64,000 bases of DNA from an uncultured Bacilli bacterium (GTDB lineage Bacteria > Bacillota_I > Bacilli_A > RF39 > UBA660): contig CAKOND010000002.1 of the NCBI GenBank assembly GCA_934096945.1, positions 45,975-109,974 on the forward strand. The letters run 5' to 3'. Under the pieces are notes generated by a model. That model searched no databases, was not told where the DNA came from, and saw only the letters and a program-made list of their open reading frames with translations. Position 1 is the first letter of the stretch. Each line of letters opens with the position of its first letter. The translations under genes were made by a program, and so were the position numbers. This document shows, piece after piece, positions 1,592 to 8,164 of this stretch.

Positions 1592-3142
1592 ATGATTGGA
1601 AAATATGAGTTAGATGAATTGCTTAGCAAATATGGTGTTGATGCAAGTAAGGTTGTAGGTAAAAATAGCAATGTATTAACATATGGTGAATATCAAGAGA
1701 TTAAAAATGTTCTTGAGTTTTTAGTGTGTGAATGCAGGATTAGTCCAAGAAATATTGAGAAGTGTCCAAGTATACTTTCATATAACACACAAAATATCAG
1801 AGAAAATTATGAATTTTTAAAAAATAGTAACGTTAATTTAAGCAGTGTTGGAACTACATTACATGTTTTATGTGCAAATCCTAACGATTTAAAGAAAACT
1901 TATAAATATATTTTAGAAAATTATGGAATGGGATATATTAATAGAACAACATCGATATTAGCTATTAATGTTGATAGAATTAAAGAAATAGAAAAAATGT
2001 TAGATGATAAGTCTTTGGTGATTTCAGCTGCAGTATCCCGTTTATCTATAGCTGATATATTAAAAGATATAACTTTTTGTAAAAAAAATAATATTCCGAT
2101 TACAGTCATTGTGTTTCAAAAAAAGTCGGATGAAATAGAAAGAATAGTAAAGGTTTGTAAAGAAAACAAAATTTCAATCACAGATAGCGTTTTTCGCCAA
2201 ACAGCTGATGAAATAGAAAGAATAATTAAGGTTTGTAAAGAAAATAATATTTTAATTTCAGACAGTGTTTTTCGCCAAACAGCAGGTGAAATAGAGAGAA
2301 TAATAAAGGTTTGTCAAGAAAATAATATTCCAATCACAGGAAGTGTGTTTAAAAAAAAGTCGGATGAAATAGAAAGAATAGTAAAGGTTTGTCAAAAAAA
2401 TAATATTCCTATAATGGGAGATGTTTTTCGAAGAACTGCTGATGAAATAGAACAAATAATTATAATATGTAATGAAAATAATGTTCCTATAACGGGAAGT
2501 GTGTTTAAAAAAACAGCAGATGAAATAGAAAGAATAGTAAAGGTTTGTCAAGAAAATAACATACCAATAATAGATAGTGCGTTTTTAAAAACAGCAGCTG
2601 AAATAGAAAAAATAATTAAAGTTTGCCAAGAAAATAATATACCAATAACAGGAAGTGTGTTTTATAAAACAGCAGCTGAAATAGAAAAAATAATAAAAAT
2701 TTGCCAAGAAAATAATATACCAATAACAGGTAGTGTGTTTAAAAAAACAGCAGATGAAATAGAAGAAATAGTAAAAGTTTGCCGAGAAAATAATATAATA
2801 ATATCAGGCAGTTTATTTAATAAAAATGCAGAAGATCTACAGGCTTCAATTGATTATGTAAAAAGTGCTTATGGACAAGAATATTTAGTTCCATTGGTAG
2901 TTAATAAAAATGTAAAACATTTACAAGAAGTGTTTCCTTATTTAGATTTTTTAGGTTTACTTCCGTATGTTATAAAAAGTGCATCTATTTTGTTGTTGAC
3001 TTTGGATGAAATAATGGAAAGAAAAGAATATATAGAAAGTCATGGAGAAAGTCTAGTAACGAAAACGGGTAGATTTAATTCTATATTTGGTCTTTCAAAG
3101 AAAAATTATGAAAAATTATGTGGTATGCGGGTGAGGTTATGA
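1592..3142 (+). CDS. 26-residue tandem-repeat protein, paralogue 1 (10 units), function unknown
   Basis: SD GGGGGA precedes the start. The N-domain begins MIGKYELDELLSKYGVD. Ten units follow the pattern DEIERIIKVCKENNIPITGSVFxKTA, then a C-domain SIDYVKSAYGQEYL. The stop overlaps the next start as ATGA. Confidence 0.85.
   Translation: MIGKYELDELLSKYGVDASKVVGKNSNVLTYGEYQEIKNVLEFLVCECRISPRNIEKCPSILSYNTQNIRENYEFLKNSNVNLSSVGTTLHVLCANPNDLKKTYKYILENYGMGYINRTTSILAINVDRIKEIEKMLDDKSLVISAAVSRLSIADILKDITFCKKNNIPITVIVFQKKSDEIERIVKVCKENKISITDSVFRQTADEIERIIKVCKENNILISDSVFRQTAGEIERIIKVCQENNIPITGSVFKKKSDEIERIVKVCQKNNIPIMGDVFRRTADEIEQIIIICNENNVPITGSVFKKTADEIERIVKVCQENNIPIIDSAFLKTAAEIEKIIKVCQENNIPITGSVFYKTAAEIEKIIKICQENNIPITGSVFKKTADEIEEIVKVCRENNIIISGSLFNKNAEDLQASIDYVKSAYGQEYLVPLVVNKNVKHLQEVFPYLDFLGLLPYVIKSASILLLTLDEIMERKEYIESHGESLVTKTGRFNSIFGLSKKNYEKLCGMRVRL
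2078..2842 (+). repeat. 78-nt tandem coding repeats in paralogue 1
   Basis: gatgaaatagaaag recurs with a 78-nt period (e.g. 2129 and 2207). Confidence 0.9.
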
Positions 3143-6314: not shown

Positions 6315-8164
6315 TTGGAAATTATGAGTTAGATGAATTGTTAAGTGAATATGGTGTTGATGCAAATAAGGTTATAAGTAAGAATGATAAAGTATTAACA
6401 TATGGTGAATATCAAGGGATAAAAAGCGTTCTTGAGTTTTTAGTGCGTGAATGTGAAATTAGTCCAAGAAATATAGAGAAATGTCCAAGTCTTTTGTATC
6501 AAAATGCAACATATGTTAAACAAAATTATGCGTTATTAAAAATGAAAATATTGCCTGAAAGAATAAATATGGCTTTACATGTATTAGGTACTGATAGTGA
6601 AGAATTTAAGAAAACACTTGATTATGTAATAGAAAATTATGGTGTAGATAGACTAAATAAAACCTTATCTGTTCTTAGAGTTAATAAAAAAAGAATAGAA
6701 AAACTTGAAGAAGTAATTGATGATAAGGATATTGTTCTTCAGGTAGCTATTTTAAATATAGATGTAAGTGAAGTAAAGAAAATAGTTAAAGTTTGTAAGT
6801 ACCATGGAGTAAAATTGTATCCTGGTATGTTTAGAAAAGATGCAATTAATGTTGAGAGAATAATATATTTGTGTAAAAGAATAGGATTAGAACTAAGTAA
6901 TGGAATATTTTTTAGAACTGCGGATGAAGTACAAAATATAGTTAATACATGTAATAAAGAAAGTGTTGATATCTATGGTACAATGTTTAGATTGAGTGAT
7001 ATAGAAGTTAAAAGAGTAATAGAAGTATGTAAGAAAAATAATGTGAAAATTAATAGTAGAATGTTTCTAAGAAAAGCCGATGAAATAGAAAATATAATAA
7101 AATTGTGTAAAAAATATAATATAGAGCTTATGAATAGTATGCTTTATAAGACACCGGAAGAAGTAGAAAAAATAATACTTTTATGTAAAGAAGAACATAT
7201 TGATATAAGTGATGGTATTTTTGCTAAATCGGCGGAAGAAATAAAAAATATAATAAAAGTATGTAACAAGTATAAAGTAAAAGTGACTAGTAATGTTTTT
7301 AGTAGAAGTGCTTTTGAAATAGTAAAAATAATTGAACTTTGTCAAAATAATGGAGTGCCTATTACAAGTAGTGTGTTTTTTAAAAAGTGTGAAGATATTG
7401 AAAAGGTAATAAAAGTATGTAAAAAATATGGCGTTGCTTTAAGTGGAAATGTTTTTAATAAACCTAGTGAAGAGATAGAAAAGATAGTAAAAATTTGTGA
7501 AAAATATGGATTATCTATGACGGGTAGTATGTTTATGAAAACAAGCTCGGAGTTGGAAAAGATAATACTTGTTTGTAAAAAATATGATGTACCTGTGACG
7601 GGAAGTTGTTTTTATAAAAATGCAGATGTTTTAGAAGAAATTATTAAGGTTTGTAAGGAATATGGACTCGAAATAAAGGGAAATATTTTGAAGCAAGAAC
7701 CTGATGAAATAAAGATGATAATTAGTTTGTGCAAAAAATATAATTTAGAAGTTATAAATAGTATGTTTATTAGAAATGCTCAAGAATTTGAAAACATTGT
7801 TAATTTATGTAATAAAGAAGGAATTAGTATTTTGCCAAGTATTTTTTTACAATCTTTTAAAGAACTTAAAAAATCAATAATATATGTGAAATCTAATTTT
7901 GGTAAAGAATATTTAACTGTGCTTGTTGTTAATAAAAATGTTAAATATTTGGAAGTTGTTTTGCCTTATTTAAATGAACTAGGTGTGCTTTCAGTTGTTA
8001 TTAAAAGTGCATCAATTTTAACTCTTAGTTTAGAAGAAATTAAGATGAGAAAGAAATATATTGAAAATAATGGTGAGGATATGGTTCTTCCAAGTGGAAA
8101 ATTTAATTCAGTGTTTGGACTTTCAAGAAAAAATTATGAAAGATTAGTGGGAATGGTTCGTTAA
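6311..8164 (+). CDS. 26-residue tandem-repeat protein, diverged paralogue 4 (14 units)
   Basis: Start placed at MIGNYEL (ATG 6311, SD GGTGGAG). There are 14 diverged units that keep the period and the single Cys (e.g. EEIEKIVKICEKYGLSMTGSMFMKTS). The terminal domains are conserved. Confidence 0.85.
   Translation: MIGNYELDELLSEYGVDANKVISKNDKVLTYGEYQGIKSVLEFLVRECEISPRNIEKCPSLLYQNATYVKQNYALLKMKILPERINMALHVLGTDSEEFKKTLDYVIENYGVDRLNKTLSVLRVNKKRIEKLEEVIDDKDIVLQVAILNIDVSEVKKIVKVCKYHGVKLYPGMFRKDAINVERIIYLCKRIGLELSNGIFFRTADEVQNIVNTCNKESVDIYGTMFRLSDIEVKRVIEVCKKNNVKINSRMFLRKADEIENIIKLCKKYNIELMNSMLYKTPEEVEKIILLCKEEHIDISDGIFAKSAEEIKNIIKVCNKYKVKVTSNVFSRSAFEIVKIIELCQNNGVPITSSVFFKKCEDIEKVIKVCKKYGVALSGNVFNKPSEEIEKIVKICEKYGLSMTGSMFMKTSSELEKIILVCKKYDVPVTGSCFYKNADVLEEIIKVCKEYGLEIKGNILKQEPDEIKMIISLCKKYNLEVINSMFIRNAQEFENIVNLCNKEGISILPSIFLQSFKELKKSIIYVKSNFGKEYLTVLVVNKNVKYLEVVLPYLNELGVLSVVIKSASILTLSLEEIKMRKKYIENNGEDMVLPSGKFNSVFGLSRKNYERLVGMVR
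6765..7860 (+). repeat. diverged 78-nt tandem coding repeats in paralogue 4
   Basis: 14 units with a conserved Cys and the hydrophobic pattern. Nucleotide identity between units is low. Confidence 0.8.

Follow-up and report, generated by a model that had tools for sequence, protein, structure and literature searches.

The mTERF proteins have long been regarded as a eukaryotic, organelle-directed invention, and members of the family bind RNA as often as DNA. The motifs from which they are built are approximately 30 residues long and three-helical (two alpha helices and one 3-10 helix), with a conserved Pro/Leu pattern, and are degenerate and non-tandem. In TALE proteins, which also wrap nucleic acid with helical repeats, each unit carries one conserved Cys. 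The first prokaryotic relatives of mTERF to be reported form the family of tandem-repeat proteins named pTERF (Hu et al., Nucleic Acids Res 2024, PMC11417379). pTERF1 (MBQ3414883.1), which comes from a ruminant-gut Clostridia metagenome-assembled genome (MAG), binds the double-stranded DNA (dsDNA) motif ACTNNNAGTC with a dissociation constant of 1.87 nM, and pTERF2 binds a different dsDNA motif, likewise with nanomolar affinity; the pTERF units are three-helical and number 3–11 per protein, and the identifier of pTERF1, TR_35_C32_2, indicates a 35-residue period (PMC11417379). Here, five adjacent genes (w0–w4) are described from a 64,000-nt stretch of DNA of an uncultured gut bacterium (contig CAKOND010000002.1); the whole stretch is referred to as the window, and all coordinates are positions in it. 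The four large genes, w1–w4, very probably encode alpha-solenoids of the mTERF superfamily, in which a tandem array of 26-residue units is held between two mTERF-like terminal domains, while w0 encodes a small acidic protein.

As the initial annotation of this locus had stated, w1–w4 are same-strand paralogues joined by ATGA stop/start overlaps (at 3139, 4764 and 6311, preceded by the Shine–Dalgarno (SD)-type sequences GGTGAGG, AGGTGA and GGTGGAG, respectively), with a 78-nt DNA period and 10, 11, 10 and 14 units of exactly 26 residues in w1, w2, w3 and w4, respectively. Tandem Repeats Finder reported the 78-nt arrays in w1–w3 with scores of 701–1188, together with higher-order periods of 312 nt in w2 and 234 nt in w3, and in each of the four arrays the first unit is degenerate. 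A Cys is fixed at unit position 11; the further claim of exactly one Cys per unit does not hold for two units of w4, which contain a second (C360 and C433). The N-terminal domain, previously put at about 160 amino acids (aa), measures 151–152 aa, and the C-terminal domain 102–104 aa. At the DNA level, the terminal domains of w1–w3 are 90–95 % identical, whereas the identity of those of w4 is approximately 59 %; w4 is also the most basic paralogue (net charge +14), and w1–w3 are approximately neutral. Between the units of w1–w3 the proportion of synonymous differences (pS) is 0.48 and the ratio of nonsynonymous to synonymous substitution rates (dN/dS) is 0.40, showing that the units are under purifying selection. 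Since high synonymous divergence is combined with low dN/dS, and more than 300 homologue clusters exist elsewhere, the repeats represent neither a chance pattern nor a recent low-complexity expansion. Among 1,589 unique units collected across the family, the best conserved residues are C11 (97 %), I7 (88 %), F23 (85 %), E3 (85 %) and I16 (84 %), with K/R at position 25 in 75 % and at position 12 in 65 % of units. The most variable position is 24 (3.47 bits; L, R, K, Q, Y, M, V, I and H), which is flanked by F23 and K/R25.

Among the known kinds of protein, the w0–w4 family appears closest to pTERF when compared by description, and may be placed among the prokaryotic mTERF-like tandem-repeat proteins. 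Both groups are prokaryotic, consist of tandem mTERF-like helical units that vary in number, occur in MAGs of uncultured gut and rumen Bacillota, and are well modelled by AlphaFold. According to the published description, however, they are set apart by the unit, which has 35 residues and three helices in pTERF and 26 residues and two helices in w1–w4, and 35-residue units were not seen among the relatives of w1–w4 examined, whose periods are 26, 28, 29, 30 and 32. Furthermore, no conserved small partner or tandem paralogue array has been reported for pTERF (PMC11417379), unlike w0–w4. The earlier statement that no family could be named for these proteins stands as far as Pfam and NCBIfam are concerned, but overlooked the 2024 description of pTERF, albeit one of proteins with 35-residue units. 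With the eukaryotic mTERF proteins (PF02536; MTERF1–4 and plant mTERFs) w1–w4 share profile homology of the N-terminal domain, a predicted alpha-solenoid fold that matches in its local repeat geometry, and motif resemblances in the terminal domains (IEKCPSIL and NYxFL), but differ in being bacterial proteins without organelle targeting, in which mTERF-like caps enclose an almost perfect tandem array of shorter, two-helix units. TALEs and TALE-like proteins (AvrBs3/dHax3, RipTALs, Bats, MOrTLs and STARs), which give the best fold matches, resemble w1–w4 in having two-helix units, which in w1–w4 may likewise be stacked into a superhelix, and in high variability near the helix–helix turn. However, the TALE unit has 33–35 residues with a repeat-variable diresidue (RVD) at positions 12 and 13, whereas the present unit has 26 residues, no RVD and one dominant variable position (24); no hit of w1–w4 to the TAL_effector Pfam family was obtained, neither a type III secretion context nor an activation domain is evident, and the host is a Gram-positive gut commensal. 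No evidence for common ancestry with TALEs was seen. The locus adds to the mTERF superfamily a distinct and easily recognised bacterial branch, characterized by 26-residue two-helix units, a small partner and strain-variable tandem paralogues.

The relationship to mTERF is carried at the sequence level by the N-terminal domain. No Pfam or NCBIfam family covers w1–w4, and PADLOC was likewise uninformative, so that none of the three provided a whole-protein match to a characterised family of the kind that would have overturned the initial annotation. The gathering threshold of the Pfam mTERF family (23.1 bits) was not reached; the best match was that of w3 (18.1 bits, E value 1.3e-3, residues 18–86), w0 matched with an E value of 0.05, and mTERF was absent from the top 25 Pfam families listed for w1, w2 and w4. 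Hits to FAD_binding_4, Cas2, SAP and similar families were rejected as repeat artefacts, in which scores are summed over a single stretch of 20–40 residues; for FAD_binding_4 this is one 24-residue stretch (profile positions 5–28) summed over the copies. A profile of the N-terminal domain, on the other hand, retrieved human MTERF3 (3m66) from the PDB with an E value of 1.1e-4, followed by MTERF4 and MTERF1. The same profile matched the metagenomic proteins P0317, P0319 and P0314 with E values of approximately 1e-14, and these three proteins pass the Pfam mTERF threshold with E values of 1.5e-26, 7.6e-18 and 3.1e-14, respectively. This transitive link is sound and indicates, at the profile level, that the N-terminal domain is homologous to mTERF, in agreement with the resemblance to mTERF repeats originally noticed in the terminal domains. 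The beginning of the C-terminal domain in turn resembles residues 97–133 of the N-terminal domain (hhalign probability 92 %). The unit itself may be derived from the mTERF motif, as suggested by its modelled fold and its position between mTERF-like caps. The possibility that it is a shortened form of a 32-residue mTERF-type unit was considered and dropped, since only the first helix (AEEIEKI) aligns, with a non-significant E value of approximately 1.

An AlphaFold2 model of w4, obtained with a 40-sequence alignment, has a mean predicted local distance difference test (pLDDT) score of 93.4 and is all-helical, strictly periodic and free of strands, as would be expected of the regular solenoid proposed earlier. 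In the model, each unit comprises a 13-residue helix (positions 1–13), a loop of 5–6 residues, a 5-residue helix (positions 20–24) and a 2-residue linker. When the model was compared with the PDB using Foldseek, the only natural proteins at or near significance were TALEs or TALE fusions (DNA-bound; E values from 6e-7 to approximately 4e-3, probability approximately 1.0) and MTERF1, MTERF3 and MTERF4 (probability 1.0). The other fold matches were designed helical repeats, and no TPR, HEAT, ARM, PPR or LRR structure was found among them. No match was obtained in a library of viral structures, giving no sign of phage origin. A sequence search of the PDB with w4 retrieved only a de novo designed protein (E value 2e-4) and was set aside as uninformative.

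The small protein encoded by w0 (90 aa, isoelectric point 4.4, net charge −10) appears to belong to the same system. In a survey of 74 loci, which hold the best 80 of 139 confirmed matches, a homologue of approximately 90 aa adjoins the repeat genes in nearly all loci, being located upstream, downstream or between the paralogues, usually with one copy per cluster of one to five repeat genes. The reading frame upstream of the array had been described as related to the large proteins and 91 aa long; the relationship is supported by the resemblance of w0 to residues 63–120 of the N-terminal domain (hhalign E value 3.5e-4) and by its co-conservation, although the length is 90 aa, as the 1307–1579 interval includes the stop codon. 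In the AlphaFold2 model of w0 (pLDDT 92.6), eight short helices form a bundle; of its six fold matches in the PDB, all of them weak, the best five are MTERF4 or MTERF1 (66 residues, 2.3 Å, but with an E value above 1). A PDB sequence search with the w0 profile gave just chance-level matches to CheY and SarA. On our reading, w0 is a two-motif mini-mTERF that acts together with the solenoids, probably as their partner or regulator, for example as a cap or as an occupant of the binding groove. Beyond w0, no consistently conserved neighbour was found at the surveyed loci; ileS, lspA, rluD, divIVA, methionine gamma-lyase-family and SDR genes were considered as partners and rejected, their recurrence having the appearance of general synteny. 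At one locus (L017, 55–567), the w0 homologue lies within a 170-aa stop-to-stop open reading frame (ORF) that continues from what appears to be the N-terminal part of release factor 2; this is an artefact of ORF calling rather than a fusion, and possibly marks the prfB frameshift region.

The fold matches and the mTERF homology may be accommodated by a model in which w1–w4 are cytoplasmic proteins composed of an mTERF-like N-cap (approximately 152 aa), an expandable array and a C-cap (approximately 104 aa). The array would wrap nucleic acid in the manner of TALEs and MTERF1, with dsDNA as the most likely ligand, for which the dsDNA binding of pTERF1 and pTERF2 provides a precedent. The contacts would presumably be made by the inter-unit turn, namely by residues 1, 21 and 26, F23, K/R25 and the variable residue 24; the sequence preference would depend on the order in which the unit types follow one another, and the paralogues would read different sites. 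Selection on the unit positions was studied in three species pairs with diverged units (loci L010, L012 and L013), in which the orthologues are 86–96 % identical and each unit retains its own identity. Positions 24, 21 and 1 carry 2.5–2.7 bits of variation between units, yet are conserved across orthologous units (0.89–0.96), while positions 6, 2, 13 and 26 drift; at position 24, the ratio of nonsynonymous to synonymous differences (pN/pS) between orthologues is 0.14. Positions that differ from unit to unit but are kept in orthologues would be expected if the proteins bind a particular, conserved ligand through a surface centred on the inter-unit turn. No sign of diversifying selection at position 24 was seen, dN/dS between the units of w1–w3 being 0.76. 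Among the 14 units of w4, dN/dS at this position is 1.68 and many other positions also exceed 1, but these values were not interpreted, because the synonymous sites are probably saturated (pS 0.54).

Several observations weigh against this model. The template modelling (TM) scores of w4 are low (0.16–0.38), indicating that the likeness to TALE and mTERF lies in local repeat geometry and not in the global superhelix: for mTERF structures the target-normalised TM-score is 0.35–0.38 with a root mean square deviation of 12–14 Å, and for TALE a local match with an E value of 6e-7 is accompanied by a global TM-score of 0.16–0.29 and an identity of 10–11 %. No significant sequence match links the 26-residue unit to mTERF motifs. 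Position 24 is not uniquely marked, as positions 9, 19 and others show the same pattern of selection, and in lineages with homogeneous arrays it matches in just 35 % of same-index units, which is probably due to unit shuffling but may alternatively reflect neutrality. Leu is the commonest residue at position 24 and approximately 45 % of the residues there are aliphatic, which would also suit a protein or peptide ligand, and the arrays of w1–w3 are roughly electroneutral. Moreover, the motif ACTNNNAGTC bound by pTERF1 is near-palindromic, which hints at dimeric binding rather than at one unit per base, and leaves pTERF as a precedent whose modular code is itself unproven.

Taken as a whole, the explanation that w1–w4 are mTERF-type solenoids which wrap nucleic acid, with DNA as the likeliest ligand, is given an even chance. 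Sequence-specific binding of some nucleic acid is judged even or marginally better, whereas DNA specifically as the ligand is proposed tentatively and falls somewhat short of even. A more far-reaching version, in which nucleic acid is read one unit per position (with a code formed by positions 24, 21 and 1) and no natural helical module doing so is shorter than the 26-residue unit, w0 is a DNA-mimic or cap regulator, and mTERF-type factors have a diversified bacterial reservoir, is improbable. Should modular binding of DNA or RNA prove true, the proteins would be unusually compact candidates for programmable and reprogrammable binding domains, as well as possible regulators in small-genome, yet-uncultured gut Bacillota; should nucleic acid not be bound, they would still constitute a new, well-modelled solenoid family for Pfam. 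The alternatives are, in decreasing order of likelihood, RNA binding, protein scaffolding and Cys chemistry.

According to the first of these, w1–w4 are RNA-binding solenoids similar to MTERF3, MTERF4 and plant mTERF4 and mTERF9, with rRNA, tRNA or mRNA as the ligand and a role in ribosome assembly or RNA maturation. Apart from the frequency of RNA binding among mTERF members, this is favoured by the occurrence of MTERF4, known from mitoribosome assembly intermediates, among both the fold and the sequence matches, and by the location of the loci, which lie amid housekeeping genes (sufB/serS, ruvB/eno, mutL/miaA and ileS/lspA/rluD) and outside mobile or defence islands. However, complexes of TALE and MTERF1 with dsDNA give the best fold matches, an RNA-modifying enzyme is not co-encoded, a factor dedicated to rRNA, which does not vary, would hardly be expected to change in copy and unit number between strains, and the sole characterised prokaryotic relatives bind dsDNA (PMC11417379). 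An RNA ligand is thus considered unlikely, although this alternative survives best.

The electroneutral arrays of w1–w3 and the frequently hydrophobic residue at position 24 would be compatible with a protein–protein scaffold, in which the solenoid binds peptides or proteins in the manner of TPR, ARM and HEAT repeats, w0 is a possible ligand and nucleic acid plays no role. The co-encoding of this acidic partner in nearly all loci, as well as the many designed helical repeats among the fold matches, also agrees with such a function. Nevertheless, natural protein-binding solenoids are absent from the fold matches, the N-terminal domain is homologous to a nucleic-acid-binding superfamily, and positions 25 and 12 carry a conserved K/R, which makes a scaffold a slightly weaker contender than an RNA-binding protein. 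A redox, metal-binding or Fe–S function based on the almost invariant C11 is far less probable. The operon lies just 3′ of a SufB/D gene in the window and in a second strain (locus L076), but the suf neighbourhood is not kept at the other loci, and no CxxC or other paired-Cys motif is present. According to the model and the unit statistics, C11 falls within the central part of the long helix, together with the hydrophobic core positions I7, I8 and V10, and is therefore probably buried, and the single Cys per unit has its counterpart in the TALE repeats. Finally, the analogy with the Cys-containing leucine-rich repeat (LRR) drawn in the initial annotation, i.e. an alpha/beta horseshoe, shares with the units only the 26-residue period and the fixed Cys, and is already refuted, as far as a model with a pLDDT of 93 can do so, by the absence of the beta strand that each LRR unit requires (LxxLxLxxN/C) from the modelled array and of LRR from the fold and Pfam matches.

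The family is small, narrow and unnamed, and is confined to gut and rumen Bacillota MAGs. More than 300 homologues were found in 5.8 billion protein clusters, with no informative name among 120 listed, and the NCBI record of one member, MBQ8472592.1, reads ‘hypothetical protein’; a search of 1.84 billion representatives with the N-terminal domain profile returned only 302 proteins at E≤1e-3. The 139 confirmed matches were obtained in an alignment-based scan of one genome per GTDB species. All but one of the 74 surveyed loci come from uncultured gut MAGs (human, primate, rabbit, pig, chicken and ruminant), the sole record not titled as a MAG being ‘Clostridium sp. CAG:302’, and they are labelled as Bacilli, Clostridia, Tenericutes/Mycoplasmatota or Erysipelotrichaceae. 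Units were counted in 226 family proteins, which have 1 to 24 each; a 291-aa member contains approximately one, and a 1,115-aa member, the units of which are 28 residues long, appears by eye to contain more than 24. Copy numbers derived from short reads are lower bounds, since many MAG contigs end inside the arrays. The N-cap also heads arrays with periods of 28, 29, 30 and 32 residues, and its presence on units of several lengths points to a wider, undescribed superfamily. In P0208, P0247, P0293, P0318, P0256 and P0304, for example, the mTERF-like N-cap precedes units of 29, 30 or 32 residues with a quite different consensus, and in the 32-residue group the array is accompanied by a further C-terminal domain of approximately 250 aa without a Pfam match.

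The number of paralogues appears to vary even between close relatives. In the second strain (L076), the w4 protein is 100 % identical at the amino acid level, and a single 620-aa gene (L076 1142–3004), placed between w0 and w4, replaces w1–w3; in its 3′ half, the last six units and the C-terminal domain are identical to those of w3. The single gene represents either a strain-level change in copy number or an assembly collapse. As the gene ends are nearly identical, unequal crossing-over would be possible, and the cluster representative P0003 is a mosaic of w1 and w3. A further unusual arrangement is found in locus L027 (1598–7543), where a 1,981-aa ORF starts with a signal-peptide-like sequence and continues with Cna-B/SpaA-like adhesin repeats (approximately 1,490 aa), to which a family member lacking roughly its first 100 residues is joined in frame. 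This ORF probably stems from a metagenomic contig that is chimeric; a genuine fusion would amount to a surface-displayed variant.

The features of the locus are listed in Table 1.

Table 1. Positions of the w0–w4 genes and of the putative upstream signals in the window
Feature	Position	Strand	Description
Possible operon promoter	1253..1281	+	TTGTGT, spacer 17 nt, TGgTACAAT; read by eye
SD sequence	~1293-1302	+	GAAGGCGGAG; 3′ of the candidate promoter and 5′ of w0
w0	1307..1579 (including stop)	+	90-aa acidic protein
w1	1592..3142	+	516 aa; N-terminal domain, 10 units of 26 aa (nt 2048-2827), C-terminal domain
w2	3139..4767	+	542 aa; 11 units (nt 3595-4452); ATGA overlap with w1 stop
w3	4764..6314	+	516 aa; 10 units (nt 5220-5999); ATGA overlap with w2
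w4	6311..8164	+	617 aa; 14 diverged units (nt 6764-7855); ATGA overlap with w3

It is proposed that w0–w4 form a five-gene operon. The stop codon of w0 is separated from the start of w1 by 12 nt containing GGGGGA, and the overlaps between the large genes suggest that their translation is coupled. The possible promoter lies between the stop codon of the sufB-like gene (1234) and w0; it was not listed by a consensus promoter scan, because its −35 hexamer matches at just three of six positions. No terminator was found in a scan of positions 1100–8800. Long antisense ORFs within the arrays (2258–2551, 3607–3864, 3982–4176 and 5532–5723, all on the − strand), the translations of which are periodic and rich in Y, F and I, were rejected as genes and regarded as by-products of the 78-nt repeat.

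Downstream of w4 lies a 148-aa ORF (8241–8687, + strand) to which the source record gives the name Cytidylate_kin2. Approximately the first 45 residues (MIGIPFYVIGQGLNGIIRADGSLKYDMIATLSGAILNIILDPIL) resemble a fragment of a membrane transporter, and the ORF may be what remains of a truncated or chimeric gene. A good −10 element (TGcTATAAT) is present near this ORF, at approximately 8199–8209. At the Rfam gathering scores, no rRNA, riboswitch or T-box was detected in the window, in which six tRNA genes are clustered at 14514–15814 (− strand) and two single ones are located at 39228 and 51704 (− strand). A stress- and sporulation-type cluster at 9277–10553 comprises SpoVS (− strand) and a Fur/PerR-family regulator gene overlapping that of a rubrerythrin (+ strand), followed by serS, and fits an anaerobic Bacillota host.

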